Assembly (NCBI GenBank): GCA_030390025.1
Contig: CM059432.1
Coordinates: 98,458,001 to 98,522,000 of the forward strand
DNA: 64,000 nucleotides
From: Squalus acanthias
Taxonomy: Eukaryota
Direction: 5' to 3'
Of this stretch, positions 31,827 to 55,477 are shown in pieces. Made by a program: the position numbers and the translations under genes. Below the pieces are notes generated by a model. That model was not told the origin of the DNA. It did not search any database and worked only from the letters and a program-made list of their open reading frames with translations. Every line of letters starts with the position of its first letter. The first letter of the stretch is position 1.

Positions 31827-33883
31827 TAGCATTTTCCCTACTATTGGTGTTCGGCTAACCGGTCTGTAGTTCCCTGTTTTCTCTCTCCCTCCTTTTTTAC
31901 ATAGTGGGGTTACATTTGCCACCCTCCAATCTGCAGGAACTGTTCCATAATCTATAGAATTTTGGAAGATGACAACCAATGCATCCACTATTTCCATGGC
32001 TACCTCTTATAGTACTCTGGGATGCAGATTATCAGGCCCTGGGGATTTATCAGCTTTCAGTCCCATTACTTTCTCCAGCGCTATTTTTTTACTAATACTA
32101 ATTTCCTTTAACTCCTCCTTCTCACTAGACCCTTGGTTCCCTAGCATTTCTGGGAAGTTATTTGTGTCCTCTTCCGTGAAGACAGAACCAAAGTATTTGT
32201 TTAATTACTCTGCCATTTCCTTGTTCCCCATTATAAATTCTCCTGTTTCTGACTGTAAGGGACCTACATTTGTCTTCATTAATCTTTTTCTTTTTACATA
32301 CTTGTAGAAGCTTTTACAATCTGCTTTTATGTTCCTTGCAAGTTTACTCTCATACTCTATTTTTCCCCTCTTAATCAATCTCTTGGTCCTTTTTTGCTGA
32401 ACTCTAAACTGCTCCCAATCCTCAGGCTTGCTACTTTTTCTGACAACTTTATAGGACTCCTCTTTGGATCTAATACTACCCTTAATTTATTTTGTTAGCC
32501 ATGGTTGGGCCACTTTTCCTTTTGTGTTTTTGCACCAGAAAGGAATGTATAACTGTTGCAATTCATGCATTCGTTCCTTAAATGTTAGCCATTGCCTATC
32601 CACCGTCATGCCTTTTAATGAAGCTCCCCAATCTATCATAGCCAACTCACTCCTCATAACTTTGTAGTTTCCTTTGTTTAGATTTAGGACCCTAGTTTCA
32701 GATTGGACTTCTTCACTTTCCATCTTAATGAAGAATTCTACATGTTATGGTCACTCTTCATGGAAACATAGAACATAGAAGATAGGAGCAGGAGTAGGCC
32801 ATTCAGCCCCTTGAGCCTGCTCTGCCATTCAATGCGATCATGGCTGATTATCCAAATTCAGTACCCTGTCCCTGCTTTCTCCCCATATCCCTTGATCCCC
32901 TTAGCCTTAAGAAATATATCTAACTCCTTCTTGAATATATTTAATGAATTGGACGCAACTGTCTTCTGTGGTAGAGAATTCCACAGGTTCACCACTCTCT
33001 GGGTGAAGAAATTCCTCCTCATCTCAGTCCTAAATGGCTTACCCCTTATCTTTAGACTGTGACCCCTGGTTCTGGACTGCCCCACCATCGGGAACATCCT
33101 TCTTGCATCTAGTCTGTCTAGTCCTCTTAGAATTTTATAAGTTTCAATGAGATCCCCTCTCATTCTTCTAAACTCTAGCGAATACAAGCCCAATCGACCC
33201 AATCTCTCTTCATACATCATTCCTGCCATCCCAGGCATCAGTCTGGTGAATCTTCGCTGCACTCCCTCCATGGGAAGAACATCCTTCCTGTAGAATTCGC
33301 AATATATCGCGATTTGATTAATAAGGAGAAAACACAAAGTTTCGTTCAAACAGCTTTTATTTCAGCAGAATGCTGGCAAGTTTAGAGTGGACACAAGCAG
33401 CCTGTAAAATGGCCGCCGCACCTCGTGACAGAACATTCTAGACTTTTCAACAGGCAGACAAGATGGCGTTCCATTAAACATTTGTGCAAGATCGATAACG
33501 ATTCAGCACAGTGAAGATAATACACGAGACATTATGGGTTTGCAGTATAAACATAGATACTGGAATCGGTCTCCCAGGTACAAAGGAAAGCCATTGTACC
33601 GAGTAATCAAGGGCCCATCCAAAAGACATTAATATGTAAAATCCCAACGACTCTACGATGAGAGAGCCGTTAGCAGGTAGTTATACAGGACACTTGGAAG
33701 CCCCAAACCCCTCCAGGGAGAACACCGACCGATTTAACAATGGGAAAATGTTAACAGGTACTCAGACATTTACGAGTAGCCCCGAAACCCATTAAGAACG
33801 GAGATCACCCATACAAGACATTTGGGCGCCAAACCCTAAACAAAAGAATGGACATTATAGTTGGGCGGGAAACGGAAGATTTT

Positions 33884-33894
33884 TGCACTATAAT
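33884..33894 (+). promoter_or_regulatory. Putative LTR TATA box
   Basis: GCACTATAAT. The TATAA core is conserved in the two diverged LTRs (minus strand ~1005-1014 and ~17155-17163). Confidence 0.6.
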
Positions 33895-34537
33895 TGCAGG
33901 CTCCAAACCGTCCATTCTCTCTCTTGCTCTTGCATTCGCTCGCTTGCTCCTGTGCTTTTATCCGGTCGATTCGTAACCTCGTGGCTGCTCCTGTGTACTC
34001 GTAGTTGGGCTTCTGCTTGCCTGTTGCCTCTTCTGAAAAGACTGTTGAACTTTCTGATCCGTTCGGATCTACCTCGTGTCGCGTAACGAAGACCTATGTT
34101 GGTAACTGGCAGCGGAACCAAAGGCCCGAGATGAGATGAGATGAGATGAGATGAGATGAGAAGAGAGGAAGACCATATCCATCGCCACGGTCAGTAAATC
34201 CCGACCGCGCCTGTAGGTCGATTAGCCAAGTTTTCCTCGCCAGGAAGATTTCTCTTTTGAACTTTTAACAAAACATATTGCATCGACGATAACGGGACTG
34301 TGTCCAAGGAGATTGGAACGTGAAAACACATCGTATCGATGATATTGACAACTGTGCTCCAAGAGTACCTGTTAAACCAACCAACACAGGTCTTCATCAC
34401 AGCAGACGGTCCAGCCTGCTAGCCGGAGCAGCAGAAGCAAGTAAACAAGTGGGACCAGGAGATCTCCTGACCGACACGTGGGTGCTGCGGTGAAAAACAT
34501 CCGATCAGCTATTCGGAATTTCTCCGAGTTATCACGA

Positions 34538-34546
34538 GTGGTGAGC
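34538..34546 (+). promoter_or_regulatory. Putative major splice donor inside the LTR R region (GT at 34541)
   Basis: GTG|GTGAGC lies in a 20-nt block identical to minus-strand 354-373. G|GTGAGT is at an equivalent position in the solo LTR. Confidence 0.6.
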
Positions 34547-34753
34547 ATGAGTCTCGAGATCCTACGAAGCTAGTTTAGGATAGATATTGATAGGGGAGGG
34601 TTTAAGGATTAAGGATATTTGTAATGTGTGCCCCTATTTACTTTGTGCCGTTCGTTCCTCGTTTCCCTAAGATCGACTATATAACTGTTTGTAAGATTGT
34701 ACTGTCATTAATCTGTGCTTATGACATGTATTTCATACTTTTAAGTATCATGC

Positions 34754-34759
34754 AATAAA
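34754..34759 (+). promoter_or_regulatory. LTR polyadenylation signal (functional copy expected at 42561-42566)
   Basis: AATAAA(G), conserved in all three LTR types. Confidence 0.7.
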
Positions 34760-35014
34760 GATTTTCCATTTCGTACCATTCAAACCAAGTCTACATGAGT
34801 TTTATCTCCATTACTGCTCTCGCATCTAAGTCCAGTGTCTAGAACCGTAAGGGAGAGTGATTCGAACCACTCACAGGTGTGTCTAGTGTTCCCAGACTGG
34901 CTGGAGACCAGAACAGGCAACCAGGCCTAGACCCGCACTGACATACAGGCTGCACAGAGCCGCGTGAATCTCACAGGCTGCGAGACACGCAGGGTCAGGA
35001 ATCCCTTACAGAAA

Positions 35015-36826
35015 ATGGCGACCGCGGCAGGACACTGGCAGCGAGAGGGTAGTGTGTTAGATTTTGGAATGACTGTACGAAATGTTATGCAGGAAAAGAT
35101 AGCGGATTATGTGTTTGGAAAGGTTAATCTAACTAAGAAGTGGATAAGTGAATTGTTAGCGGATAAGAGCCCACTAGAGGCAGCTGAAAGGTGGACAGAT
35201 AGTAAAGAACATAGAAAGACACTTGAGAAAGCAGTCTGGCTTATGTGCTACAAAAGGCAGGTTCAGATTTCAAACCAGACCATTACAGCGCTAGTAGCTC
35301 GAATCAGTCATTTAGAGGGAGAAATGGAGGAGAAGGTTTCTGGAGGGGAGGTGCTCATTAAGAATTTAAATGAGTTACACCAAGAAAGCCAGGAAGTCTC
35401 CAGCCACCTTAAAACAAGGATAGATTATCTCGAGTGCCAGGTCACTGAGGCAAAATTGAATGAGAGCAGGTTAAAGGAAAGATGTAACCGCCAAGCTGCC
35501 CAGATAAGAACTCAAGAAGAGAGCTTAATGGGGGTTAGGTCGGCATATAAGTTGGCCCTTGAGGATAAGTTTCAGGGAGCCGACCATAGCGCCTGCCAAA
35601 GGGAGATAGAGAACCTCAAAAAGGCCGTGAACAATGCGAACGGCATGGTGTGCCTTATCAATCCGTCGGCGCACCAGCCGCTAGTAAATGAGAGATTTAG
35701 AAAATCCCCACCAAGTAAAGCAGAAGAAGTAGTAGCCACTGCGCCCTCCGCGCCACCCAGCTATTCAGAAACCTGGGTTAGGGAGGAAGCAATGGAAGAC
35801 ACAAAAGAGCCCATTGAAAAGGAAGTAGAAAAGGGATCGTTGTATCCAGTAACGGGTATTAAAAGGGGCCCAAGCAGAAACGGTGGGGAAGAACCGGGGG
35901 ATCTCCTCGGACAGCTGGTGTTGCCTCACAGTTCACATCAGCTGAGAGCTATGATAAATCACGTACGGAAGCTGACCGAGATAGACGACCCTTCCGTACA
36001 TTTCAGAGAAGTTGAGCAAGCCGCAGCCATTAACGGCTGCGATGATGGGGAGACAGCAAAAATGCTGCTGTTCTCATTAGACAGCTCGGTCCTTCAGTGT
36101 CTCTCAGGCGAGAGCAAGAGGGGAAACAAGAGTTATGAGGAATTAAAGAATGAGGTCCTAGAAGTGTTGGGGGCGAACGACGGAGGTCCGTTTGCTAGAG
36201 TGGGACAGACAGTGCAGATGGAGGGAGAACCCCCGAAGGTTTTTGCCGACAGGCTGTGGCCAGTATATGAGCGCAGCTGTCTAGGTGCGCCCGAGCGCGA
36301 AGATGTGGAAGGCGCCGCTTTAACTCATTGGCTTAGGTGCATAATAGCCAACAGTTTACCAGCCGTTAGAGAGCAGGCAAAAGCATGGTTTGATCCCAAT
36401 GACCTCAACCTTACGGAAGAGTCGGTCTTGAATCGACTCACGTTAGGTTATCGCAATATAAGGGGTATGGCGACACGTCCCTTTAAGGGAAGAGTACATG
36501 AGGTACGACCCACAGCCCCGTATCAAAGAGAGTGGCATCAGGAGGGTAATCGCGCCCCACAGGCAAGTAATGCTTGTTACGGGTGTGGGAAGACAGGGCA
36601 CTGGCGCAAGCATTGCAGGAACCCTTGGAAGGATTCCAAGGATAAAAATCCCGCGGTCCGAGCCCAGGCGCCTGTCCCGGCTAAGGAAGCCAAGGCACCC
36701 ACCCCTCCCGACGACCTCGAAGCAGTGTTAGGAGCCATGCGCAAGCTGGTCTTGAATGCGCGTGGACAGGTGGCGGTCGCAACCGGCCCCGTAGGTGCCG
36801 CAGGACCGTCTAATAGTACCCAATGA
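35015..36826 (+). CDS. gag: Gag-like polyprotein (603 aa from first ATG): coiled coil, PSAP/PPxY late domain, capsid-like helical region, CCHC zinc knuckle
   Basis: Intact ORF right after the LTR. CYGCGKTGHWRKHC at 36575-36616 and PSAPPSY at 35744-35764. Confidence 0.9.
   Translation: MATAAGHWQREGSVLDFGMTVRNVMQEKIADYVFGKVNLTKKWISELLADKSPLEAAERWTDSKEHRKTLEKAVWLMCYKRQVQISNQTITALVARISHLEGEMEEKVSGGEVLIKNLNELHQESQEVSSHLKTRIDYLECQVTEAKLNESRLKERCNRQAAQIRTQEESLMGVRSAYKLALEDKFQGADHSACQREIENLKKAVNNANGMVCLINPSAHQPLVNERFRKSPPSKAEEVVATAPSAPPSYSETWVREEAMEDTKEPIEKEVEKGSLYPVTGIKRGPSRNGGEEPGDLLGQLVLPHSSHQLRAMINHVRKLTEIDDPSVHFREVEQAAAINGCDDGETAKMLLFSLDSSVLQCLSGESKRGNKSYEELKNEVLEVLGANDGGPFARVGQTVQMEGEPPKVFADRLWPVYERSCLGAPEREDVEGAALTHWLRCIIANSLPAVREQAKAWFDPNDLNLTEESVLNRLTLGYRNIRGMATRPFKGRVHEVRPTAPYQREWHQEGNRAPQASNACYGCGKTGHWRKHCRNPWKDSKDKNPAVRAQAPVPAKEAKAPTPPDDLEAVLGAMRKLVLNARGQVAVATGPVGAAGPSNSTQ
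35016..35033 (+). promoter_or_regulatory. Primer binding site, tRNA-Arg(TCG)
   Basis: TGGCGACCGCGGCAGGAC, 5 nt after the LTR. It is complementary to the 3' 18 nt of vertebrate tRNA-Arg-TCG (...GTCCTGCCGCGGTCGCCA) as recalled. Confidence 0.85.
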
Positions 36827-37987
36827 CTAGAGCCCACGCAGCCTGCCTACCTGTGTCCTTTTAAAAGACACGCACAGGAGGGGGTCTGCGGTGAGGAGGC
36901 CAGGTTAAAAGAGCAGGCCTTGCGGGAGGAGAACGCCCGCTTAATAGGGAAAATAGATGGGCTGGAAGGGCAGCTTAGAGAGCAGGCCCTGCGGGAGGAG
37001 AACGCCCGATCAATGGGAAAGTTAGACGTGCTCAGGCTAGAAGCGCAGCTTAGAGAGATAAAAGCAGCCTACAGGGTAGCCAAAAGCCGGGAGTATGAGG
37101 ATGCAAACCAGTGCAAACTGTACAAGCCAGGTGCGCAAGGGAAAACTACAGGGGTAAATCCCGCCAATGGGAAAGCACAGCCCCAGGTAGGACCACAAGG
37201 CACACAGGCAGGCATAGCAGCTTGCATCAGGGGAAGGGACATCCCGGACGATCATGCAGCGTTTTTCTGGAATTGGGGGTTAGATGAGGAAGAACCCAGG
37301 GTACCCTGGTCAGATGAGGATAGTGCAGATGAGGATAGTGATGACGACGGGTGGTTTCGGAGGAACGGTCCCGTTTACGATATGGAGGGAATGGGGGCTG
37401 TAGGTAGAGATCCACACAGGGTGGACACACAAGCTGCAGGTCCCGAGGACAGGAGGGAGGAGCTAGAGGAGGCAGGGCCAGCCGCTATAGGAGCACAGAG
37501 AGTACCGGTGTGGCTCCCAGAGATGTGGCCGCCCGCTTTGAACGTCCAGTCCTCAGGGGAGGCAGAGATCACGAGTGAAGGGCCGCCTGCTGGGCCGAGC
37601 AGGGCGGAGCCACGAACTGCCAGCCCCGAGGTTAGGGAGGCGGAGTCAGCGGAGGCGGAGCCGGCGACTGTGATGGAACCCCAGGTCATCCCGTTGGAGG
37701 TCTCGGAACCCGGTCCGTCCGTCACGGAACCCCCGCCCATAGCAACTCCCCGTAGGTCAAGTAGAGAACCCCAGCCCAGGAGGATGTGGTCATGTCCCCA
37801 GACTGCCCCAAGGCGTAGACTTCAGGTTAAGATAACCCGGGTACAGACCGGCCACATCGCAGCAGTAACAGGCTGCGGCAGATCAGAGGGAAGGGTCAGC
37901 GCAGCAACAGGCTGCGGCAGATCAGAGGGAAGGGTCAGTGCCCTCCCACCGTCGGGAAGAGCTCGCAGCAGCCTTCTCAGAATTTAA
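36827..37987 (+). CDS. ORF2, in frame with gag (probable read-through extension; coiled coil, acidic and Pro-rich; function unknown)
   Basis: 386 sense codons open immediately after the gag TGA in the same frame. TGA-CTAG context, no early ATG, no pol motifs. Confidence 0.75.
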   Translation, partial: LEPTQPAYLCPFKRHAQEGVCGEEARLKEQALREENARLIGKIDGLEGQLREQALREENARSMGKLDVLRLEAQLREIKAAYRVAKSREYEDANQCKLYKPGAQGKTTGVNPANGKAQPQVGPQGTQAGIAACIRGRDIPDDHAAFFWNWGLDEEEPRVPWSDEDSADEDSDDDGWFRRNGPVYDMEGMGAVGRDPHRVDTQAAGPEDRREELEEAGPAAIGAQRVPVWLPEMWPPALNVQSSGEAEITSEGPPAGPSRAEPRTASPEVREAESAEAEPATVMEPQVIPLEVSEPGPSVTEPPPIATPRRSSREPQPRRMWSCPQTAPRRRLQVKITRVQTGHIAAVTGCGRSEGRVSAATGCGRSEGRVSALPPSGRARSSLLRI

Positions 37988-38299
37988 AGGGGCCGCCCTG
38001 AGAACGGGCGGCACTGTAAAGTTATAGTTCTAAGTTTTAAGTTTATAGTAACAAGGTTAAGTTTTAAGTTTATAGTTCAAGGTTAAGCTTATAGTTTTAA
38101 TAAGGCTAAGTTTGTAGTTTTTTTAACAGAAAACGATAAAATGATGGGAGCTTTAAAGATAGGTTTAGTTGAAGTTTATTCAGCGAACGTTGAAGTTTAC
38201 GTGAGGCGAGGTCAGGGGACCCGCTCACCCTTCACAAAAGCCAGAGACTCTTGCGAGGCTGGCTACCTCATTCTATCTGATCACAGGAACCAAGGAAGG

Positions 38300-40651
38300 A
38301 TGGAACGAATTCTAGTATTGCTCGTGGCAATCGGATGTGGATTGGCCTATCGAGGCCGCACCAAGGATGTCGTGGTGTTTGGATGTTCCGGGGACACGGC
38401 CCCCATCGCGGTGGATGGGACCGGAAGACGGAAGGCAGAGGGGACCAGCACCTATTTCCACAAGGGAAGGTGGCCAGGATGGCTGGGAACGAACTCAACG
38501 GAGTATTCTAGCACCTCGGGGTTTGCCTACCAAGAGACTTCTTTACTGTGCCCCAAAGTAAGGATCATCGCACCCAGGATCAGCGTCACCGTCGGCAAAC
38601 GGATTTGTTTGACTTGTAGTGGGAATGTCCCATTGAGCCGATGGTGGTGGCTACGAAAGCTGAGCAAAACTATGAGGAACTCCTCGGTCGAGTGGGAACG
38701 ACTGGGTAATAATACCCATCGGACAATTACGGGGACAAACGGACAAGTGAAAGTCTGTTGGGACAAATGGTGGGAACCGGATGAGGGAATTTATGTATGT
38801 ATGTGGGGGTCAAAGTACGTTTGCCCCAAAGGCATCTCCATATTTTTTATTAATCAATGGCAGGATAACGGACAGGGGATGAGGTGGGATGCGAGCACCA
38901 GGGGGTGCGGAGCCCCATTCTCCCCGATCCCAGTAAATGCCACTGAACTCATTACGCGCCCACGCAAAGCCCCGCCCACGATTCCGGTGGTTCTAGCTGA
39001 GGAAGAAGGGTGCCCTAAAACTAGTAAGGGACCCGGGAATGGTTTGGTACTGGTCCCCACAGACCAGATACTATTTCAGGGGGTACATTACGTGGTGGCC
39101 TCGGTGATTTTAAATCTCACTGAGGTGCGGTTACCAGAGTGGTGCCCCAAAAAGACGGAACAGTTGTATCAGGTCCTGTTGACCAAGATGTTCAGACAAT
39201 TTTACGAGTTTGATTTTGCAGAAATCGATAAAACAAGTTTGTACACCGCACCACAGGAAGTTTTGGATCAAGTAGGGAGGCAAAGAAGGGGTTTGGTGAA
39301 CGATGCGTTCACTGCTTTTAACACAGGGACATCTGTGGTCAACGCTCTAGACAGTGTGGAGCTGCAGACCCAGATTAATGGTTTAAAGACACAGTTAAAA
39401 GACATTCTAACAGATGAGAATAAAGTGGTAGGGTCAGGTCTACACGAGGACCAAGCCATGACTCTCCATTTAAAGGAAATTATAGCAGAGCTGGAGAAAC
39501 ATGCAAAGACGGTAAATGCCCTGATCAGGGAAGATCGGAATGCATCCGATCAAGCTGCGCAGAACGAGGTGTGCGTGCTTTACGGGGCGTGGTTACTGGG
39601 CGAGGGCCGCAGTAATTTGGAGGATTTAAAACAAGGTTTGGTTCCGTCCTGGATAAGTAACAAACACCTACGGGCGCTCCACCCTTTTCAGAACGCATTA
39701 AGTCCGTGCCAGCTCAGGCTAGCTTCAGAAGCTTACCCAGTCCCCGTGGACTGCGGACGATCAAACCATACTATTATGGGAATAGTATTACGCATGCCGG
39801 TTTTGGGCGACACAGCAAAGCCCGCCCCGGTGTATCGGGTAGAGAACATTGGTGTCATTCAGGGGGGAGCCCACATTCGTTACGCAGCGGTTCCACCTTA
39901 CGTCATCCGCTGGGAGCAAACGATGACAGGTACAGATCTCTCTGGTTGTCGTGGCAGGGGAGCACACATAATACTGTGCCCCCAGCACTTGAATGCCTTT
40001 TTAACACCACAGTGCGGGTTCAGAACGGCTGGCGCCAAGTCCATGAATTGCACCATGGAGGCAATGGCACAGGATCATGTGCCTCCGCAGGTAGCATACA
40101 TCGGGGGTGGAACATATTGTGTTACCACTGCAGCGCAACACTACCAGCATGGAAACCGTAGCCGGTGTCCGGTGAGTGACAGCAGTTTCTGTTTTAAACC
40201 CAGGGCTGAAGTTCAAGTAGCACAACAGCGAATTATCCCAATCCCTGAACCATCCACTGTTCATCTCACAGTAAAAGAGAATTTCACCGACTTGCAGCGA
40301 TTTGTCGCGCATTTTGGATACCTCATTCCCCCTCTCCCTGAACACTTAACCAAACTTCTGAAAGCCGTCGCGGTATCACAGAAACATTTTTATACATTAG
40401 AGCAGAAAACTGTCGAAATAGGAACAGACATTCTGGACATAGTAGTTCCACCGTGGTGGAATCTGTTCACTAATATTGAAGTGCCTTCATGGATCAGAAT
40501 AGCCTCCCACATTTTAGTCGTATGTCAAGTGTTTATTGTAGTGTACCTATTGGTCATACATTGTAAAAGAGACAAACGCCTCACCAAGCATGAAAACACG
40601 GGAGAGTGGCGAGAACGTTACGTGCGCGTGCACGATGAGAGCACCGTGTAA
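38300..40651 (+). CDS. env: Envelope / class I fusion glycoprotein (783 aa; frame open from 38141) with an N-terminal Ig-like domain
   Basis: Signal peptide MERILVLLVAIGCGLA. Furin site RQRR (39278-39289), then a fusion-peptide-like GLVNDAFTAFNTGTSVVNAL and a heptad repeat. Cys-rich region, C-terminal TM (IASHILVVCQVFIVVYLLVI) and several NxS/T sequons. Splice acceptors at ~38129 and ~38286. Confidence 0.9.
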   Translation: MERILVLLVAIGCGLAYRGRTKDVVVFGCSGDTAPIAVDGTGRRKAEGTSTYFHKGRWPGWLGTNSTEYSSTSGFAYQETSLLCPKVRIIAPRISVTVGKRICLTCSGNVPLSRWWWLRKLSKTMRNSSVEWERLGNNTHRTITGTNGQVKVCWDKWWEPDEGIYVCMWGSKYVCPKGISIFFINQWQDNGQGMRWDASTRGCGAPFSPIPVNATELITRPRKAPPTIPVVLAEEEGCPKTSKGPGNGLVLVPTDQILFQGVHYVVASVILNLTEVRLPEWCPKKTEQLYQVLLTKMFRQFYEFDFAEIDKTSLYTAPQEVLDQVGRQRRGLVNDAFTAFNTGTSVVNALDSVELQTQINGLKTQLKDILTDENKVVGSGLHEDQAMTLHLKEIIAELEKHAKTVNALIREDRNASDQAAQNEVCVLYGAWLLGEGRSNLEDLKQGLVPSWISNKHLRALHPFQNALSPCQLRLASEAYPVPVDCGRSNHTIMGIVLRMPVLGDTAKPAPVYRVENIGVIQGGAHIRYAAVPPYVIRWEQTMTGTDLSGCRGRGAHIILCPQHLNAFLTPQCGFRTAGAKSMNCTMEAMAQDHVPPQVAYIGGGTYCVTTAAQHYQHGNRSRCPVSDSSFCFKPRAEVQVAQQRIIPIPEPSTVHLTVKENFTDLQRFVAHFGYLIPPLPEHLTKLLKAVAVSQKHFYTLEQKTVEIGTDILDIVVPPWWNLFTNIEVPSWIRIASHILVVCQVFIVVYLLVIHCKRDKRLTKHENTGEWRERYVRVHDESTV

Positions 40652-40658
40652 TCAGAAA

Positions 40659-40853
40659 ATGGCGTCACTCCCGCTCGCCGCGTGCACCGCGGAAGTTTGT
40701 ACTCATATAAGATTTTCAGAGATTGTAAATACGTTGGGAACTCGACATGTTTTAAGAGTTGGGGTTTTGATTATTTTGGTGATGGTGTTGATTGTTTGGT
40801 TTTGGGTTTTGTTTTTTCTCCTTTCCCTGAATAAAAGACAAATATACAGGTGA
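40659..40853 (+). CDS. Putative small membrane protein (64 aa)
   Basis: AAAATGG Kozak context 7 nt after the env stop. One long hydrophobic stretch VGVLIILVMVLIVWFWVLFFLLSL followed by NKR. Confidence 0.35.
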   Translation: MASLPLAACTAEVCTHIRFSEIVNTLGTRHVLRVGVLIILVMVLIVWFWVLFFLLSLNKRQIYR

Positions 40854-41083
40854 TACGAGAGGTATCGGCCTGGTTACGCCGGGAAGGAAAACAAGTGGTG
40901 TAAGTTTAAGGGCAAATAATGCCTACGGTGATATAAAATGTAATTTTCTTGGGAAATAAGGACGACACAGAGACCCTAGCTAAGTTAAAAATTATGGGAT
41001 TAATTTACTGGATTCGGAGAGAAATCGAGATAATATTGCTCATCACTGTGATTTTTGATACGATAAGCGGAGTTATTCGCATC

Positions 41084-41095
41084 AACAGGAGGGAC
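41084..41095 (+). promoter_or_regulatory. Polypurine tract (short)
   Basis: AACAGGAGGGAC immediately before the 3' LTR TGT. Confidence 0.65.
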
Positions 41096-42817
41096 TGTAG
41101 AATTCGCAATATATCGCGATTTGATTAATAAGGAGAAAACACAAAGTTTCGTTCAAACAGCTTTTATTTCAGCAGAATGCTGGCAAGTTTAGAGTGGACA
41201 CAAGCAGCCTGTAAAATGGCCGCCGCACCTCGTGACAGAACATTCTAGGCTTTTCAACAGGCAGACAAGATGGCGTTCCATTAAACATTTGTGCAAGATC
41301 GATAACGATTCAGCACAGTGAAGATAATACACGAGACATTATGGGTTTGCAGTATAAACATAGATACTGGAATCGGTCTCCCAGGTACAAAGGAAAGCCA
41401 TTGTACCGAGTAATCAAGGGCCCATCCAAAAGACATTAATATGTAAAATCCCAACGACTCTACGATGAGAGAGCCGTTAGCAGGTAGTTATACAGGACAC
41501 TTGGAAGCCCCAAACCCCTCCAGGGAGAACACCGACCGATTTAACAATGGGAAAATGTTAACAGGTACTCAGACATTTACGAGTAGCCCCGAAACCCATT
41601 AAGAACGGAGATCACCCATACAAGACATTTGGGCGCCAAACCCTAAACAAAAGAATGGACATTATAGTTGGGCGGGAAACGGAAGATTTTTGCACTATAA
41701 TTGCAGGCTCCAAACCGTCCATTCTCTCTCTTGCTCTTGCATTCGCTCGCTTGCTCCTGTGCTTTTATCCGGTCGATTCGTAACCTCGTGGCTGCTCCTG
41801 TGTACTCGTAGTTGGGCTTCTGCTTGCCTGTTGCCTCTTCTGAAAAGACTGTTGAACTTTCTGATCCGTTCGGATCTACCTCGTGTCGCGTAACGAAGAC
41901 CTATGTTGGTAACTGGCAGCGGAACCAAAGGCCCGAGATGAGATGAGATGAGATGAGATGAGATGAGAAGAGAGGAAGACCATATCCATCGCCACGGTCA
42001 GTAAATCCCGACCGCGCCTGTAGGTCGATTAGCCAAGTTTTCCTCGCCAGGAAGATTTCTCTTTTGAACTTTTAACAAAACATATTGCATCGACGATAAC
42101 GGGACTGTGTCCAAGGAGATTGGAACGTGAAAACACATCGTATCGATGATATTGACAACTGTGCTCCAAGAGTACCTGTTAAACCAACCAACACAGGTCT
42201 TCATCACAGCAGACGGTCCAGCCTGCTAGCCGGAGCAGCAGAAGCAAGTAAACAAGTGGGACCAGGAGATCTCCTGACCGACACGTGGGTGCTGCGGTGA
42301 AAAACATCCGATCAGCTATTCGGAATTTCTCCGAGTTATCACGAGTGGTGAGCATGAGTCTCGAGATCCTACGAAGCTAGTTTAGGATAGATATTGATAG
42401 GGGAGGGTTTAAGGATTAAGGATATTTGTAATGTGTGCCCCTATTTACTTTGTGCCGTTCGTTCCTCGTTTCCCTAAGATCGACTATATAACTGTTTGTA
42501 AGATTGTACTGTCATTAATCTGTGCTTATGACATGTATTTCATACTTTTAAGTATCATGCAATAAAGATTTTCCATTTCGTACCATTCAAACCAAGTCTA
42601 CATGAGTTTTATCTCCATTACTGCTCTCGCATCTAAGTCCAGTGTCTAGAACCGTAAGGGAGAGTGATTCGAACCACTCACAGGTGTGTCTAGTGTTCCC
42701 AGACTGGCTGGAGACCAGAACAGGCAACCAGGCCTAGACCCGCACTGACATACAGGCTGCACAGAGCCGCGTGAATCTCACAGGCTGCGAGACACGCAGG
42801 GTCAGGAATCCCTTACA
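41096..42817 (+). repeat. 3' LTR (1722 bp)
   Basis: Same sequence as the 5' LTR at offset 7807. The only difference seen by eye is A33442/G41249. Confidence 0.97.
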
Positions 42818-44311
42818 TTCCTCAGATAAGGCGACCAAAACTGCACACAATACTCAAGGTGTGGTCTCACCAAGGCCCTGTACAACTGCAGCAAGACATC
42901 CTTGCTCCTGTACTCGAATCCTCTCACTATGAAGGCCAACATACCATTTGCCTTCTTAACCGCCTGCTGCACCTGCATGCTTACCTTCAGCGACTGGTGC
43001 ACAAGGTCACCTAGGTCTCGTTGCACTTCCCCTTTTCCCAATCTATTACCGTTCAGATAATAATCTGCCTTCCTGTTTTTGCCACCAAAGTGGATAACCT
43101 CACATTTATCCACATTATACTGCACCTGCCATGCATCTGCCCAACCACCCAACCTGTCCAAATCATACTGGAGTTTCTCTGCATCCTCCTCACAGCACAC
43201 ACGCCCACCCAGCTTTGTGTCGTCTGCAAACTTGGAGATATTACATGTCGTTCCCTCGTCGAGATCATTAATATATATTGTGAATAATTGGAGTCCTAGC
43301 ACCGATCCCAGTGGTACCCCAATACTCACTGCCTGCCACTCGGAAAAAGACCCTAAAGGACCCCGCACAACAAGATTATTAATTGACCCCTTCTCATTGC
43401 ACAATACCCAATCTAGGATAGCCTGTTCTCTAGTTGGCTCCTCAATGTACTGGTCTAAAAAACCATCTCGTACACACTCCAGGAATTCATCCTCCACAGT
43501 ATTATTGCTAATCTTGTTTGGCCAGTCTATATGTAGATTAAAGTCACCCATGATTACTGTAGTACCCTTGTTACATGCATCTCTAATTTTCAGTTTGATG
43601 CCATCCCCTACATCACCACTACTGTTTGGAGGCCTATAGACAACTCCCACGAAAGTTTTCTGCCCCTTGCTGCTTCTTAGCTCCACCCAGACTGATTCTA
43701 CATCTTGATTTTCTGAGCCAATATCCTTTCTCACTATTGCTCTGATTTCATCCTTTACTAACAACGCCACCCCACCTCCTTTTCCTTTTCGCCTGTCCTT
43801 CCTAAATATCAAATATCATTGGATATTCAGCTCCCAGCCTTGTTCACCCTGCAGCCATGTCTCTGTACTCGCAGTTATATCACATCCATTTACACCTATT
43901 TGCGCTGTTAATTGATCTACCTTATTACGAATGCTTCGTGCATTCAGATACAGTGGGGGAAAAATTAAGTCGCGCCCCATTTGGGGCGCAAATATCATCT
44001 GGACGCAAAAATTAGCGCCTGGCGCTAATTATCGCCACTGACTGGAAACTTCACTTTTACCGCCCCGGGAGGTGAGTGGAGCGCTAAATCAGGCGCTGCA
44101 CACCTGTCTTAAGGCGCAAAGGCCGAGCAGTGAGGCGCTAACTCAGCGCGTGAGCGCAGCGCAGGTGCTGCCAGTTAGCGAGGGAACACAGACACACTGG
44201 CTCCGGCCAGTTCTTAAAGGGGGGGGGCAACTTGCTCCCCAGCCACACCCTGCTCATTGCAGCCTTGAATCTCGGCCTGGAGAGACCTGTGAATCCATTT
44301 TGCAGCCAAGG

Positions 44312-46238
44312 ATGGAGAGGGTGAGAGAACGAGCTCAGCGCTTCACCGAGCGGGCCTTCGATGCTCTGGTTGGCACGGTGGAGCGCAGAAGATCGAGACA
44401 CTTCCCTGAGAGTGGCAGGAGGCCTTTGCCACGCGAGTACAGAAGAGTGTGGAGGGAGGTGGCTCAGAGCGTCTCCTCCAGGAGCATGGTGCCCAGGACC
44501 CATGTTCAATGCCGCAAAAAGTTCAACGACCTCACTCGGGTCATCAGGGTGAGTGGCTTTTTCTCAATACCTCTCCATCCCTCCATCTCAACCTCACTCT
44601 ATGGCCAGAGGGTCTTAAAACCCCAATGCACAACACTCATCCAACACCTATGGCCCTTTCATGAAACACACACACACATTCCACACTTTGCATACAGTAA
44701 GGGCTATTCACCTATGGGAGGCACATCAGGCAAGACCATGGCTGTATACAGTAAGGGCTATTCACCTATGGGAGGCACATCAGGCAAGACCATGGCTGTA
44801 TACAGTAAGGGCTATTCACCTATGGGAGGCACATCAGGCAAGACCATGGCTGTATACAGTAAGGGCTATTCACCTATGGGAGGCACATCAGGCAAGACCA
44901 TGGCTGTATATTTACTCAGATGCTGCCCTTTTTCTTGCAGGCCAAGCTGGCGCATAATAGGAGACAGCAGCAACGGACAGGTGGAGGGCGGCCTCAGCTG
45001 CAACCCCTCAGCGATCTTGAGGAGCGCGTCCACAGGATTGTGGCAAGCCGGGTGATCGGTCCTGTCGCCACTGGAGACGCCGACCCCGTTCTGGACAGCA
45101 ATGGTAAGGTCATCACCTTTTGTCCTCTGTCCTTCCACTTGTCCCTCACAACACCAGCCTTTGACACTTTCAATCCAACTTGCTAACTCGCTGCACTTAT
45201 TCCTCCCTTACTGCCACCCTGTCCTCACGCTAAAGCCACTCTTGTACCTCCCTGCTTTCAGATGGTGATTCACCAGCTGAGGAGACGGGCCCTGAAGCTG
45301 CCAGTGGGAGTGAAGCTGCAGCCGAGGAGGAAGAGGAAGCCGGAGCATCAGTGCCACCCTCTCCCGAGGAAGCCCATGCCCACACTGGGAACACGCCTTC
45401 CCTGGAGGGGAGCAGGGGGGAAGGGTCTGATGAGGGTGAAGCTCCAGGACCCAGCGGGCTGCAGCAACGCCATGGGGGTAGGGAAGAACGGGGGCCTTCT
45501 CCTCAGAGGGAGAGTATGCCAGCGACTCCTACTGCAATGGACGCAGAGGAGGAGCGGCTGATCGCAGAAATGAACACCCAGGCGGTGGGCATGCACACTG
45601 AGCTCATGGGTGCAGTGGGAAGGGTGCCCGAATGCATTGAGTCACTGGCAAGGAGTGTGGAGCACTTCGCTGTAGCACAGGCGGATGCCACACTAACGCT
45701 TAGTGCTGCAATTCAGTCACTGACTGCCGTGATCCCATCTCTGACTGCTCTCATGCAGACTCAGATTGAGGCCACGCGAGCACTGACTGCTGCCAACCTC
45801 GATGGTTCGTTCACATGTCCCCGGGGCTCTCACCGCGCCGCAGCAGGCCAGCAATCTGTGCTCCAGCAGATTGCTCCGGATGCTGAAGTGCTGCCCCGTG
45901 GGAGTGCCAGTGTGTCGGGCGAGCAGGGAGTTGCTGTCCTCTCTCACGATGACAGCATTGCTGCTGCCAACACTGTCACTTCTCCACTGCACTTGCCACC
46001 GCCTGTAGGACAGACTGCTGCCGCCCATGCAGAGTTGGTGCAGTCTGCAGCCGGGCCCTCCAGGCCCAGAACTGGTCGAGGCCGTCCTTCAGGGGCATCT
46101 GCAGTGTCAGGGTCTGACAATCAGCAGCCTTCCACCAGCCTTGCTGCAGCCACTGAGGTCCCAATACGGAGGAGCAGTAGGGTTAGAAGGGGGGAAGTGC
46201 GCAAGGGAAGGAGATCACCCTCGAAGGGCAAAAAGTAG
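44312..46238 (+). CDS. Harbinger Myb/SANT-like DNA-binding protein, 3 exons (44312-44548, 44941-45103, 45262-46238), 458 aa
   Basis: RERAQRFTERAFDALV...WREVA...QCRKKFNDLTR. GT-AG introns give a continuous 1377-nt frame. Confidence 0.85.
44693..44908. repeat. 54-bp minisatellite x4 in Myb intron 1
   Basis: Unit TACAGTAAGGGCTATTCACCTATGGGAGGCACATCAGGCAAGACCATGGCTGTA. Confidence 0.95.
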
Positions 46239-46514
46239 GAGGTGTGACAAAATGCTGGTCATTTTTTTATTAAAGGCCGAGGTTCGTGGTCCAACTTTTG
46301 TCTAGTGTTTTGGACATTATCTCCAGGTTGTGAGAACCAGTTATGTTAATGACTGTTTTTTTGTGTTTATTTCTATGAGTTTGTCATGAGGAAATGACAC
46401 ACACAGAGTTTGTAAAATAAATAAGTTTTTGTATTCAAAATATACATGTTTGGTGTTTGGAATCATTGGTGCTTTGGCCGGCTTAGGGGTTGCGTGCTGG
46501 GTTCATTGATGTTG

Positions 46515-47769
46515 TTAGCAATGGCAGAAGCCATTTCCACAGCAGGGGCCATAGAAGCGGCTTGCTATCAGCCGTTGACGGACGGCCCTTGCAGTTTCAC
46601 CATTGTGGGCCGCCCTCCCGCCTTGGTGCTGCTGATGATCATCCTCCTCATCCTCTTCCTCCTCCTCCTCTGGTGGTGCTCCAAGGCCTGGTGGCATTTG
46701 CTGGGTCCTGACGATTGCCATGTTATGCAACATGCAGCACACAACTATGAAGTTGGATACTCGCTCAGGCGAGTACTGCAGGGCTCCTCCAGAATGGTCG
46801 AGACAGCGGAACCGTTGCTTCAGCACGCCGATTGTGCGCTCAATGATGTTCCTGGTAGCTTGATGGCTCTCGTTGTACCGCAGCTCAGCAGGGGTGTTGG
46901 GCGTACGGAGCGGTGTCATCAGCCAGGTGCTCAATGGATACCCCTTGTCCCCGAGAAGCCAACCAACTGGCTGATGCGGTGCCTCGAAAAGTTCTGCCAC
47001 AGTAGTCTGGCGCAGGATGAAAGCATCGTGGCAGCTGCCAGGATAGTGGGCATTGACAGCGAGTATCAGCTGTCTGTGGTCACAGACCAACTGAACATTC
47101 AAGGAATGGAACCCCTTTCTGTTCCGGAAATCCTCGGCATTCTCATGGAGCACGCAAAGCCACATGCGTGCAGTCAATGGCGCCCTGCACCATGGGGAAG
47201 CCCGATATCCTCGCAAAGCCCAGAGCGCGGTCACGCTGCTTGTCTAGGGTCATGGGGAAAGAGATGAACTCTCGTCTCCTTTTAAAGAGGGCATTTGTGA
47301 CCTGCTGGATGCAGCAATGCACCGCGAACTGGGAGATATTGGCGAGGTCCCCAGCAGCAGCTTGAAATGAGCCAGTAGCATAGAAGTTGAGAGCCACTGT
47401 GACCTTCACTGCCACCGACAGAGACGTCCTGGACCTCAGTTGAGGCTGCAGATCTGGCAGCAGCAGGTGGCAGAGCTCAGTGATCACCTCCTTGCTGAAT
47501 CGCAGCCTTCGCAAACACAGCTCCTCAGACATATGAATGTAGGAGAGCTGTTCACGATATACCCTGGGAGGGTAAGCTCTCCTGTACATACGCCTGTTGG
47601 CCCTCCTCCGTCTGGCCATCATTGCCACTCTCTCTCTGCGTCTCTGTGTCCTCCGATTCAGCTGGAGCAGGACGACGCCCCCAATCAGTGCAGCCTCCAT
47701 AGTCTCTTTGCAAGCAAAGTTATGAAGGACAGCAACCAAAGTACCAGCGAAGTTAGGATCAGTAGGCAA
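46515..47769 (-). pseudogene. Harbinger (HARBI1-like) DDE transposase with one frameshift near 47145
   Basis: [15 protein letters not shown] and [18 protein letters not shown] motifs are split over two frames. 2-nt deletion relative to copy 2. Confidence 0.9.
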
Positions 47770-50127
47770 AACTACCTCACAAAGCGTTGACTCAATGCAG
47801 AAGTCTCTCTTTCTCTCTCTCCGAATCTCTCTCTCTCTCTCAGAACGAGTGGTGCAAAAATGTCAACCACAGAAAAAGACAGGAAGAGGCCCCCTTTAAA
47901 TAGCGCCCCCCCCAGCCCCACAGTGATTGATAGCGTTCCAGTTTTCCGGTCGTTGGATGCGCCAGGCGGTAAGGCAGGGGGCACCACTCAATTTCCGCTC
48001 CGGGGCGCCACAAGGGCGTTGCACCATGGAATGACGTCACAATCTGCGCGCGCAGGTGGTCGCAGCGGTAAAGTTTAGCGACGCCGCACAATGTCTAGTT
48101 AAGTTCCCGAGCGGCGCAAACATCGCTGCGCCCGGGTGCTAGCGGCTTTGCGCCCCATTAGCGCCCTCTTAAGGCGCTAACGGGAGGCGCAACCAACTGA
48201 ATTTTTCCCCCAGTGCCTTTAGATTTGTCTTTTTAACATTTTTAGACATCTTAACATTTTTTTGTACTATGGCGCTATTTGTCTTTTTACCATTTATTCT
48301 TACCCGGACCCTATTTGTTGGTGCATTCCTTTGTTTGTACATTCTGTCCCTTCCTGACACAATCTGGTTATCCTTACCCCAATCACTTTCCTGTACTGCT
48401 TCCTTGTCTTTTCTCTTTAGCATTCTAGATTTCTCTCCACCGCGACCCTCCCCCCACACCCTTATTTAGTTTAAAGCCCTATCTACCTCCCTAGTTATTC
48501 GATTCGCTAGAACTCTGGTCCTAGCATGGTTCAGGTGTAGTCCGTCCCAACGGAACAGCTCTCTCTTTCCCCAGTACTGGTGCCAGTGCCCCATGAATCG
48601 AAATCCACTTCTCTCACACCAATCTTTGAGCCACGCATTCATCTCCCTGATCCTATTGACCCTATGCCAATTTGCTCGTGGCTCCGGTAATAATCCAGAG
48701 ATTGTGACCTTTGAAGTTCTGTTTTTTTAATTTAGTCCCAATCTGCTCAAACTCTCTCAGCAGAACCTCCTTCTTTGTACCTCCTATGTCATTGGTACCT
48801 ACGTGAACCACAACAACTGGATTCTCCCCCTCCCACTCCAAGTTCTTCTCCAGCCCGGAGGAGATGCCCTTTACCCTGGCACTGGGTAGGCAACGTAGCC
48901 TTCGGGACTCACGCTCCTGGCTGCAGAGAACAGTATCTATCCCCCTAACTATACTGTGACCTACTACAACCACCTTCCTTTTTACTCCCCCCACTTGAAC
49001 GGCTTCCTGTACCACGGTGCTGTGGTCAGTTTGCTCATCCTCCCCGCAGTCCCCGCACTTGTCCACAAGGGTTGCAAGAACCTCAAATCTATTGGACAAG
49101 TGCAGGGACTGAGGCTCCTGCAATACTACCTCCTGGATCCCCATACCTGCCTCACTTGCAGTCACACCCTCCTGTCCCTGACCACGTGTCAATTCTAAAG
49201 TAATTAATTTAAGAGGTGTGACTGCCTCCTGGAGCAAAAGGTTCAGGTAACTTTCTCCCTCCCTGATGTCTCGCAATGTCTGCAGCTCCTCAACTCGGAG
49301 CCGAAGTTCCTCGAGCCGCAGACACTTACCGCAGGTGTAGTCACCCTGGACAAAAATGTCCACAAGCTCCCACATGTTGTAGTAGCAACACATCTTGTGT
49401 TCTCCCATTATTTTATTTATTTAATTAATTAGTTTAGTGTTAATCAAATTATTTACCTAGTTTAGTTTATTAAATTAATTAAATTAAGTTTAGTTTTTAA
49501 AATTTAGTTATATGCTGTATGTTAACTTAAAACTTAGCCCACAGTCACTACCAATTACTTACCTGCCTTACCTGTGATGTCACACTGCCATTTTCTCTTG
49601 TTATTGCAGGTCTGCTGCTGCTTTTATCCCCGCTCTCGGGCCTCGGTCGGCTCCCGTTCAGGTCCGCCACTGCTCTGTGGGAGAACTTAGGAAAAGCAAG
49701 CACCTCCTTCCCCCACTTCACCAAACTCCCACACTTACCAAACTTCCACTTGTTCACTCTGTGCTCACTGCACTCAGTGCTGGCTGCACTCACAGGCCCC
49801 TGTGTTTATACTTTTGTAACTTAGATGAGTCAACACTGCTCTGCTACTGTTTCAGGAACCAGTTTAATCTAGTTAGCTAATTAACTACAGCAGCTCTTCA
49901 GCAGGAGAGCTTGCTTGTTTGTCTCTGCTTAAGCCTGAAGAAACTTAAAAATTTAAAGTTCAAAATTTTAACTTAAACAGTTGATCTTACTTAAGAGCTA
50001 CTAGCAATTTACACTAGATTTTAAAAGAGATTAACCCTTAAAACTCCCACACTTACCAAACTCCCAGTTGTTCACTCTGTGCTCACTGCACTCAGTGCCT
50101 GTTCCCTTGTTGGTTCTAAGATATATT

Positions 50128-52148: not shown

Positions 52149-53600
52149 TTTGTTCCAGGAGGCAGTCACACACTTTAGGATTAGTAGTACTTTAGAGTTC
52201 ATCAGTGGTCAGGAACAGGAGGGTGTGACTGCGAGTCAGGAAGGTATGGGGACCCAGGATGCAGTGAAGGAGGAGCCTCAGCCCTGGACCTTGTCCAACA
52301 GGTACGAGGTACTTTCTACCTGTATGGATGAGGAAAAGGACTGCATGGAGGATGGGCAAACTTACCACGGCACTGTGGTACAGGGGGCCATCCAAGTGGG
52401 GGGAGAAGGAAGGAATGTGGTAATAGTAGGGGGCAGTATATCAGGGGGATAGATACTGTTCTTTGCAGCCACGAAAGAGAGTCCCAAAGGCTGTGTTGCC
52501 TGCCCGGTGCCAGGGTTAAGGATATCTCCTCGTGGCTGGAGAAGAACTTGGAGTGGGAGGGGGAGGATCCATTTGCTGTGGTCCATGTAGGAACCAATGA
52601 CATAGGTAGAATTAAGAATGAGGTTCAGCTGAGGGAGTTTGAGGAGCAAGGGTCTAAATTAATAAGCAGAACCACAAGGGTAATAATCTCTGGTTTACTA
52701 CCTGAGCCACGTGCAAATTGGCATTGGGTCAAGCAGATCAGAGAGTTAAATGCGTGGCTCAAAGTGTGGTGTGGGAAAATGGGGTTTCAATTCATGGGGC
52801 ATGGGCACCAGTACTGGGGAAAGAGGGAGCTGTTCCATCAGGGCGGGCTCCACTTAATCCGGGCTGGGACAGTGTCCTGGCGAATCGAATAACTAGGGCT
52901 GTAGATAGGCCTTTAAACTAAAAAAAGGGGGTAAGGGGTCAGGTGAGGGGGAATTTAGAAATCTAAAGAGAAAGGTCGAGGCAATAGAGCAGTGTAGAAA
53001 TTTGGGTAAAAATAAGCAGAGTGTGACAGGAAGGGATAGAGAGTTTAATAGTAGCAGTGCAGCAGAGAATAAGGTCAAAGCAGGGAATAATGGTAAAACA
53101 TTTAAATTAAAGGCTCTTTATCTGAATGCATGAAGCATTCGTAACAAGATAAACAAACTAATTGCACAAATAGAGATAAATGTGTTTGATCTAATAGCCA
53201 TTACAGAGACCTGGTTGCAAGGTGGCCAAGGTTGGGAACTAAGGGGTAGAAATTAGGTCGCGCCCCATTTGGGGCACAAATATCGTCCGGACGCAAATAT
53301 TAGCGCCTGGCGCTAATTATCGGCACTGACAGGAAACTTCACTTTTACCGCCCCGGGAGGTGAGTGGAGCGCTAAAGCAGGCGCTGCACACCTGTCTTAA
53401 GGCGCAAAGGCCAAGGAGTGAGGCGCTAACTTAGCGCGCGAGCGCAGCACAGCTGCTGCCAGTTAGCGAGGGAACACAGACACACTGGCGCCGGACACTT
53501 CTTAAAGCGGGGGGGGCCACTTGCTCCCCAGCCACACCCTGCTCATTGCAGCCTTGAATCTCAGCCTGCAGAGACCTGTGAATCCATTTTGCTGCCAAGC

Positions 53601-55477
53601 ATGGAGAGGGTGAGAGAACGCGCTCATCTCTTCACCGAGCGGGCCTTGGATGCTCTGGTTGACGCAGTGGAGCGCAGACGATGTATGCTGTTCCCTGAGA
53701 GTGGCAGGAGGCCTTTGCCACGCGAGTTCAGAAGAGTGTGGAGGGAGGTGGCTCAGAGCGTCTCCTCCAGGAGCATGGTGCCCAGGACCCATACTCAATG
53801 CCGCAAAAAGTTCAACGACCTCACTCGGGTCGTCAGGGTGAGTGGCTTTTTCTCAATACCTCTCCATCCCTCCATCTCAACCTCACTCTATGGCCAGAGG
53901 GTCTTAAAACCCCAATGCACAACACTCATCCAACACCTATGGCCCTTTCATCAAACACACACACACATTCCACACTTTGCATACAGTAAGGGCTATTCAC
54001 CTATGGGAGGCACATCAGGCAAGACCATGGCTGCATACAGTAAGGGCTATTCACCTATGGGAGGCACATCAGGCAAGACCATGGCTGTATACAGTAAGGG
54101 CTATTCACCTATGGGAGGCACATCAGGCAAGACCATGGCTGTATATTTACTCAGATGCTGTCCTTTTTCTTGCAGGCTAAGCTGGCTCATAATAGGAGAC
54201 AGCAGCAACGGACAGGTGGAGGGCGGCTTCAGCTGCAACCCCTCAGCGATCTTGAGGAGCGCGTCCACAGGATTGTGGCAAGCCGGGTGATCGGTCCCGT
54301 CGCCACTGGAGACGCCGACCCCGTTGTGGACAGCAATGGTAAGGTCATCACCTTTTTGTCCTCTGTCCTTCCACTTGTCCCTCACAACACCAGCCTTTGA
54401 CACTTTCAATCCAACTTGCTAACTCGCTGCACTTATTCCTCCCTTACTGCCACCCTGTCCTCACGCTAAAGCCACTGTTGTACCTCCCTGCTTTCAGATG
54501 GTGATTCACCAGCTGAGGAGACGGGCCCTGAAGCTGCCACTGGGAGTGATGCTGCAGCTGAGGAGGAAGAGGAAGCCAGAGCATCAGTGCCACCCTCTCC
54601 CGAGGAAGCCCATGCCCACACTGGGAACACGCCTTCCCCGGAGGGGAGCAGAGGGGAAGGGGCTGATGATGGTGAAGCTCCAGGACCCAGCGGGCTGCAG
54701 CAACGCCATGGGGGGGGTAGGGAAGAACGGGGGCCTTCTCCCCAGAGGGAGAGTATGCCAGACACTCCTACTGCAATGGACGCAGAGGAGGAGCGGCTGA
54801 TTGCAGAAATGAACACCCAGGCGGTGGGCATGCACACTGAGCTCATGGGTGCAGTGGGAAGGGTGCCCGAATGCATTGAGTCACTGGCAAGGAGTGTGGA
54901 GCACTTCGCTGTAGCACAGGCAGATGCCACACTAACGCTTAGTGCTGCAATTCAGTCACTGGCTGCCGTGATCCCACCTCTGACTGCTCTCATACAGACT
55001 CAGATGGAGGCCACGCGAGCAGAGACTGCTGCCAACCTCGATGGTTCGTGCACATGTCCCCGGGGCTGTCACCGTGCCGCAGCAGGCCAGCAATCTGTTC
55101 TCCGGCAGATTGCTCCGGATGCTGAAGTGCTGCCCCGTGGGAGTGCCAGTGTGTCGGGCGAGCAGGGAGTTGCTGGCCTCTCTCACGATGACAGCATTCC
55201 TGCTGCCAACACTGTCACTTCTCCACTGCACTTGCCACCGCCTGTAGGACAGATTGCTGCCGCCCATGCAGAGTTGGTGCAGTCTGCAGCCGGGCCCTCC
55301 AGGCCCAGAAGTGGTCGAGGCCGTCCTTCAGGGGCATCTGCAGTGTCAGGGTCTGACGAGCAGCAGCCTTCCACCAGCCTTGCTGCAGCCACTGAGGTCC
55401 CATTACGGAGGAGCAGTAGGGTTAGAAGGGGGGAAGTGCGCAAGGGAAGGAGATCACCCTCGAAGAGCAAAAAGTAG
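53601..55477 (+). CDS. Harbinger Myb/SANT-like protein, 3 exons (53601-53837, 54176-54338, 54498-55477), 459 aa
   Basis: Same exon boundaries as copy 1 and a continuous 1380-nt frame. Intron 1 has 3 copies of the 54-bp repeat. Confidence 0.85.

Follow-up and report, generated by a model that had tools for sequence, protein, structure and literature searches.

A very young long terminal repeat (LTR) element lies in a 64,000-nucleotide (nt) stretch of the Squalus acanthias genome (GenBank assembly GCA_030390025.1, contig CM059432.1, positions 98,458,001 to 98,522,000 of the forward strand), which we refer to as the window and whose first base is position 1 in all coordinates below. Its gag gene ends in a UGA stop codon followed by CUAG, a hairpin is predicted a few nucleotides further on, and the gag frame continues beyond the stop into a second open-reading frame (ORF2) with homology to pol. 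We read this arrangement as the gag–pol junction of a lokiretrovirus-like (Loki-like) element, decoded by stop-codon read-through and still used by a pol-deleted family, a reading to which we give a probability of roughly 60%. The features of the element are collected in Table 1. The insertion is taken to be very young because the LTR pair carries a single difference in 1722 bases (33442/41249) and TTCC is duplicated at both ends.

Table 1 Coordinates of the element and its parts within the window
Feature	Position	Strand	Evidence or remark
LTR element, whole	33289–42817	+	9,529 bp
Target-site duplication, TTCC, 4 bp	33285–33288 (5' copy); 42818–42821 (3' copy)		sequence
5' LTR, 1722 bp, TG...CA ends	33289–35010	+	1 mismatch to 3' LTR
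3' LTR	41096–42817	+	sequence
gag, 603 aa, TGA end	35015–36826	+	N-terminal coiled coil, capsid, CCHC knuckle
Read-through context UGA-CUAG	36824–36830	+	sequence; context known from PMC4132726, PMC13517186
Predicted two-helix hairpin 3' of the stop	36835–36893, stable core 36837–36889	+	RNA folding
ORF2, 386 codons, gag frame	36827–37987	+	ORF list, translation
Start of the pol remnant	36827–36858	+	common to related contigs, which diverge afterwards; loose ends
Family-specific insert, coiled-coil-like, internal in-frame duplication	36859–37104	+	no relative found
Pol tail behind integrase C-terminal motif, low complexity, TAA end	37105–37987	+	homology to P0023, P0034; loose ends
env-like ORF, 854 codons stop to stop	38087–40651	+	read by eye
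Purine-rich tract before 3' LTR	41084–41094	+	sequence

The end of gag and the hairpin behind it

The gag frame opens with the ATG at 35015 and runs for 603 codons to CAA TGA CTA G (36821–36830), after which it stays open for a further 386 codons, to a TAA at 37985–37987, and a fusion product would be 990 residues long. An earlier note on this DNA had described this gag end and open extension and had predicted a 603-aa Gag and a 990-aa Gag-ORF2 protein; its coordinates, lengths and codon counts are all correct. TGA followed directly by CTAG is rare, occurring at 1 of the 2254 TGA trinucleotides on both strands of the window. Behind the stop, CACGCAG (36835) can pair with CTGCGGTG (36886) and CCTGTG (36850) with CACAGG (36873), with GTGTC (36853) and GACAC (36867) as an alternative inner pairing. 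The arms lie where the same note had placed them, and folding of 36824–36900 returns this hairpin as both the minimum-energy and the centroid structure (−29.1 kcal/mol, z-score −1.48). The core (36837–36841 and 36850–36856) has a pairing probability of 0.92–1.0 in five of six context windows, at 37 and 20 °C, and of only ~0.6 in the sixth (36827–36926), whilst the outermost two pairs (36835–36836) are lost in three of the six. Because these outer pairs are unstable, the distance from stop to hairpin is 8–10 nt, and the 8-nt spacing given in the note is not a firm value. None of the 133 grid windows across gag and ORF2 reaches an energy as low as that of a 66-nt window fitted to the hairpin. 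The two halves of the hairpin are imperfect inverted repeats, agreeing in 19 of 24 aligned columns once one is reverse-complemented, a likeness that either selection or an inverted duplication could produce.

Both parts of this arrangement have counterparts in known read-through systems. UGA-CUA alone gives 1.5% read-through, natural CUAG genes reach up to ~31% in reporters, and the first six bases are universally conserved (PMC4132726); stems lie 7–12 nt after the UGA at alphavirus and several plant-virus read-through sites (PMC3159437), and with UGACUA a structure is only conditionally required (PMC13517186). The element resembles these type II sites (alphaviruses; OPRL1, OPRK1, AQP4, MAPK10 and MDH1; PMC4132726, PMC3159437, PMC13517186) in its stop and 3' context and in a predicted stem with a spacer within 7–12 nt. 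It differs from them in joining a retroviral gag to a pol remnant, and in that its stem is a compact local hairpin where theirs is long-range with a loop of 100–150 nt. With retroviral gag–pol read-through (gammaretroviruses, WDSV, SnRV, SSSV, ZFERV and RMEV, PMC13517186; XtERV-S, which has an in-frame TGA between gag and pol, PMC8278194) it shares an in-frame stop placed behind a zinc knuckle and before protease. The gammaretroviruses, however, use UAG-G and an H-type pseudoknot (PMC13517186), whereas the stop here is UGA-C. The retroviral contexts listed in the accessible part of a 2026 review of read-through in animal viruses are UAGGGA, UAGGGC, UGAAGA, UGACGA and UGAAGU, with no UGACUA, and that text has no match for 'loki' (PMC13517186).

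Frameshifting was considered as another route into ORF2 and rejected: by eye, the candidate −1 slippery run, TTTTAAAA at 36859, comes after the stop and is out of register with the frame of ORF2. At the other end of ORF2 there is a tandem duplication (37850–37940). The best folding z-score among the 133 windows, −4.77, belongs to the one at 37853, some 130 nt short of the end of ORF2.

Origin of ORF2

Homology and anatomy identify ORF2 as an internally deleted pol and not a separate gene, and the element as non-autonomous. ORF2 consists of ~11 or more codons of the start of pol, an insert of ~80 codons and then the tail that follows integrase; neither a D[ST]G nor a YxDD motif was found in it. 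What the earlier note had called ORF2 is a pol stripped of its enzyme motifs. In a search of 1.84 billion representatives the sole match to ORF2 was P0023, aligned from codon ~94 to near the end (386) with a pairwise E-value of 1e-17. Immediately upstream of the aligned part, P0023 carries an integrase C-terminal motif, with weak matches to SH3_Tf2-1 and Integrase_p58_C. A search with that motif retrieved P0034, a Heptranchias protein which ends in it and which contains RNase H (PF00075) and an integrase zinc finger and core; among solved structures its integrase is closest to that of the foamy virus PFV and next to Ty3. Because ORF2 is made of the start of pol, the insert and the integrase tail, the gag stop is a gag–pol junction.

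The breaks of the deletion were located with contigs of four public runs, under four organism labels, aligned to 36300–38400 (32 pieces listed of 4034). Related contigs leave the window sequence after 36858 in three of the four runs and join it at 37105 in two of the four, placing the 5' break at or shortly after 36858 and the 3' break at ~37105. The letters beyond 36858 (up to 30 per loose end) are open in frame and, by eye, look like the start of a protease. No relative of the insert (36859–37104) was found in protein searches; it contains a duplication in frame, 36908–36950 and 36977–37019, the two copies 69 nt apart, and the first in-frame ATG of ORF2 is its codon 63 (37013). A comparison of ORF2 with longer proteins found none in what was a weak search, and the best matches in the ESM Atlas, 0.80 for ORF2 and 0.84 for env, are below the useful range. 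One contig of run X3 omits 65 bases within 37102–37168. In P0021, a relative of 138 aa, the beginning of the Gag capsid is followed at once by a segment resembling the C-terminal part of this element's env, which makes it a more deeply deleted family member.

Conservation of the stop

The stop appears to be old, its position being common to diverged Gag relatives. All six near-full-length close relatives of Gag, which form three clusters at 51, 45 and 36% identity and were compared as proteins and not as DNA, end within one alignment column of the element's stop. Five distant Gag proteins (~20% identity) end at other columns. The named relatives of Gag and pol are proteins of Rhinoraja, Scyliorhinus, Heterodontus, Rhincodon and Heptranchias, plus a distant one of Xenopus, and by themselves point to a cartilaginous fish as the most likely host. 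A search with the read-through frame, an X standing at the stop, gave 27 matches among the 1.84 billion representatives, the longest of 628 aa and none a fused form, which is weak evidence. The Gag alignment found no relative among viral and metagenome contigs, and a 20-letter junction pattern hit seven loci in metagenome contigs, at none of which (0/7) did tblastn or blastn detect a resemblance to the element, so these were set aside as chance matches.

The junction is also unchanged in closer copies. Among the pieces listed, contigs of runs X3 (36788–36994) and X12 (36792–37002) span stop and hairpin with no differences, so that the sense codon in siblings which the earlier note had named as the refuting case is not what these contigs hold. 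Substitutions were taken from the top 40 of 244 rows, 24 of them coding (15 in ORF2, 9 in gag), and none of these best 40 falls within 36614–37043. In one X3 contig the end of gag is a different one up to 36823, immediately before the stop, and from the stop onward the contig is like the window. Runs under two or more additional organism labels also contain the deleted form.

Gag–pol junctions of lokiretroviruses

Data set S1 of the lokiretrovirus study (PMC7947760) holds 24 consensus elements, with at least seven separate gag entries and at least ten fused gag–pol entries. The earlier note had proposed looking for TGACTAG at the junctions of autonomous relatives, and what the eight examined junctions of this supplement hold is a slightly wider form: UGA-CUA(G/A) stands in seven of the eight stop-bearing elements, as UGA-CUAG in Ofa, Cne, Pyo and Sau and as UGA-CUAA in Bsp, Lro and Dcl; the eighth, Tfu, is ambiguous, with N at the third base of the stop and then CUAA. 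The exact heptamer is not confined to such sites, 13 of the 17 TGACTAG matches in the supplement lying away from gag–pol junctions. At four junctions, inspected by eye, the stop and the protease D[ST]G lie in one open frame with no ATG between them. At several, also by eye, a stem is apparently possible 6–10 nt past the UGA. The main text of the same paper has no match for readthrough, read-through, suppression or stop codon, and no description of read-through in Loki-like elements was found in the literature covered, Repbase and subscription journals being outside that coverage.

These junctions bear on the alternative that gag and ORF2 formed one continuous frame until a recent nonsense mutation made the stop, with CUAG and hairpin there by chance. 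The fused entries show that such a continuous frame exists among relatives. A recent origin, however, does not fit a Gag end common to relatives at 36–51% identity or a junction identical in other runs, and a context met once among the TGA triplets of the window recurs in its six-base form at nearly all the Loki gag stops examined. On this sequence comparison we regard a recent mutation as largely refuted and scarcely credible.

The element itself resembles a lokiretrovirus, a likeness drawn from the integrase end motif and, by eye, from env, and not from a reverse transcriptase (RT) tree. It shares with the lokiretroviruses of PMC7947760 the LTR-gag-pol-env layout, a coiled-coil Gag whose capsid is nearest the murine leukaemia virus (MLV) capsid structures 6HWW/6HWX (that paper names 6HWW; the resemblance is not Loki-specific), a gag stop in the UGA-CUA context, a pol (in a relative) whose RNase H is of the retroviral type and whose integrase ends in a similar motif, motifs in env (by eye) and, with Loki-Sri, a 5-nt gap from LTR to primer site. 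It differs in that its host is a cartilaginous fish, a class absent from the hosts in the portion of PMC7947760 available to us, and in that its Gag has a CCHC knuckle, its pol is internally deleted and its env has an extra Ig-like N-terminal part. The BHIKHARI elements Bik-1 and Bik-2 of zebrafish (PMC12067270, bioRxiv 2024.03.25.586437) are likewise young, non-autonomous and Loki-related, with an intact coiled-coil Gag and a need for partner enzymes; they are without a pol remnant, and Bik-2 also without env (PMC12067270), whereas the element keeps env and a 386-codon in-frame remnant. Unlike the pol of foamy viruses, which is in another frame with its own start (PMC8278194), the remnant here is in the gag frame.

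Decoding of the junction

In the mechanism that we favour, most ribosomes would terminate at the UGA and give the 603-aa Gag, the CUAG context would weaken termination and the hairpin 8–10 nt downstream probably adds to this, so that a few percent of ribosomes would insert a residue and continue. In a pol-bearing parent the same read-through would have given Gag-Pol. The element has lost protease, RT, RNase H and the integrase core and must draw on a partner element for enzymes, the predicted read-through product being 990 aa of Gag, coiled-coil insert and disordered integrase tail. The benefit might be a low-abundance Gag-tail protein that acts in the virion or in regulation, or a long gag RNA shielded from nonsense-mediated decay (NMD), which read-through is able to block (PMC4917968; PMC5360307). 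We infer read-through, the role of the hairpin and the benefit from the sequence and its frame, the anatomy and pol-end homology of ORF2, the position of the stop and the UGA-CUA of the Loki junctions.

The loose ends behind 36858 add to this. By eye, in 20–30 letters and in three runs, they contain the exact reverse complement of 36834–36840, and related, presumably pol-bearing elements would therefore form a 7-bp stem 7 nt past the stop if they keep the 5' arm. The element is without that stretch, and the same 5' arm pairs with 36886–36893 instead. Different 3' partners for one 5' arm suggest that the structure matters, and the deletion within pol may have been followed by a rebuilding of the hairpin.

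A number of observations count against read-through being in use here. The z-scores of the hairpin are modest, −0.07 to −2.84 across five folded windows, and are equalled or bettered in 11 of the 133 grid windows; the hairpin statistics are weak support standing alone. The substitutions of ORF2 look neutral, with 4 synonymous, 11 not and no stops against a neutral expectation of 28% synonymous, where gag has 5 of 9 synonymous (all from the best 40 of 244 rows). One-base losses at 36880 and 37730 occur at ~5–6% of the depth in run X1, and therefore some copies are frameshifted. The fused Loki entries mean that the stop is not universal in the group, the gag-UGA-pol junction of Tca2 gave no read-through in a yeast reporter (PMC2194720), and the sole pyrimidine-rich AG in a crude scan of 36500–38320 ends at 36867, in the hairpin loop.

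Several of these points would also be expected of an inherited vestige, in which the parent's read-through site is carried along and may still leak but is under no current selection, ORF2 being open through youth and coding descent and the hairpin a by-product of the deletion, for example an inverted copy made by template switching. The modest hairpin statistics, neutral-looking substitutions and frameshifted minority copies all favour it, as do the near-identical LTRs and the existence of pol-less Loki families without a pol remnant (Bik-1 and Bik-2, PMC12067270). Against it, neither the two breaks of the deletion nor the insert (~80 codons) nor the 69-nt duplication has disturbed the reading frame; none of the 15 ORF2 variants makes a stop; the stretch around the junction is free of substitutions among the best rows; and the deleted form is shared with further organism labels. 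In two listed contigs, moreover, the gaps in ORF2 add up to 15 and 33 letters, both multiples of three. A frame which is open and unconstrained suits a disordered accessory tail, a gain from elongation as such or a young vestige, and we consider the vestige unlikely, though a serious contender.

Bypass of the stop at the RNA level would take one of two forms. Either a gag donor would be spliced to an acceptor just past the stop, for which the AG at 36867 and that at 36877 are candidates, or there would be a separate transcript of pol type or a start within ORF2, whose first in-frame ATG is codon 63 (37013). The pyrimidine-rich AG in the hairpin loop would suit the first, and by eye Loki junctions also have pyrimidine-rich stretches with an AG ~30 nt past the stop. 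Precedents are the promoter at the Tca2 junction (PMC2194720) and the spliced, separately started pol of spumaviruses (PMC8278194). However, no joint at the junction appears in the contigs of the four runs (contigs cannot show its absence), and an unspliced contig spans the junction in run X3, which we guess to be RNA. All 8 Loki junctions examined have the same third base in CUA, a constancy for which splicing has no need, and the codon phase of the AG differs, by eye, among Loki elements. We judge bypass improbable, and read-through of the UGA remains the reading that we prefer.

Gag, Env and the surrounding sequence

The predicted structure of Gag (predicted local distance difference test, pLDDT, 75.6) has a long coiled coil, helix 68–183. 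Gag carries a CX2CX4HX4C knuckle, with a zf-CCHC match on homologues, and in this it is unlike foamy virus Gag, which is not known to have a CCHC knuckle. The top Foldseek matches of the capsid are the MLV structures 6hwx and 6hww (E-values 5e-3 and 8e-3, probability 1.00; none below 0.001), and further structural matches are to HTLV-1, BLV and dArc1. The presumed primer-binding site begins 5 nt past the LTR with a TGG that shares bases with the gag ATG at 35015 (35011–35035), and the first Gag residues are similar in P0001, P0002, P0014 and P0018, as expected if they are encoded by the primer site.

By eye, the env-like ORF has a signal-peptide-like start at 38300, an immunoglobulin (Ig)-like segment, an RQRR site, a hydrophobic segment like a fusion peptide and a C-terminal membrane span; no Pfam F match was found in env at cut-off. 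Its single-sequence model has a pLDDT of 34, and a fold search from such a model is uninformative. The N-terminal part (38540–38830) shows an Ig-like pattern (Cys, Trp, D-x-G-x-Y-x-C), and in the PDB the Ig-like part matches only JAM and antibody V domains (E-values 0.65–1.3); an Ig domain before an F-like fusogen would be unusual. Between ORF2 and env, 37988–38140 consists of AT-rich degenerate short repeats with numerous small indels among copies.

No Pfam family matched gag, ORF2 or env at cut-off, the seven Rfam matches across the element are all far below the gathering score, and no tRNA gene was found. The element is inserted in a long interspersed nuclear element (LINE), fragments of whose RT and endonuclease lie at 42802–43812 on the minus strand, and no second copy or pol of the element's own family was found within the 64-kb window. 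Further along, 43955–47850 and 53243–57127 are related copies ~9.2 kb apart that carry Myb/SANT ORFs (plus strand) and a DDE_Tnp_4 transposase (minus strand) and that we take to be Harbinger-type DNA transposons.

Implications

The signal type is known and so is gag–pol read-through; the literature searched gave no account of the two together in Loki-like elements. A wider proposal, which we hold only tentatively and at somewhat worse than even odds, is that UGA-CUA(R) read-through is an unreported gag–pol strategy of part of the lokiretroviruses and of the Loki-like elements of cartilaginous fish, and that the pol-less, env-bearing family kept the cassette under selection, acquiring a new 3' arm after the deletion, for a Gag-integrase-tail accessory protein or for shielding from NMD. 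If true, the UGA-CUAG type of alphaviruses and vertebrate genes would be an additional gag–pol decoding signal among retrovirus-like elements. It would also bear on the origin of Gag:Pol ratio control, in a lineage that has been placed as the sister group of all retroviruses sampled and that has both fused and stop-bearing members. For annotation, gag/TGA/pol junctions of this kind would not be lesions, and a family without any pol enzyme but with the cassette would offer a natural test of read-through kept for reasons other than making enzymes.

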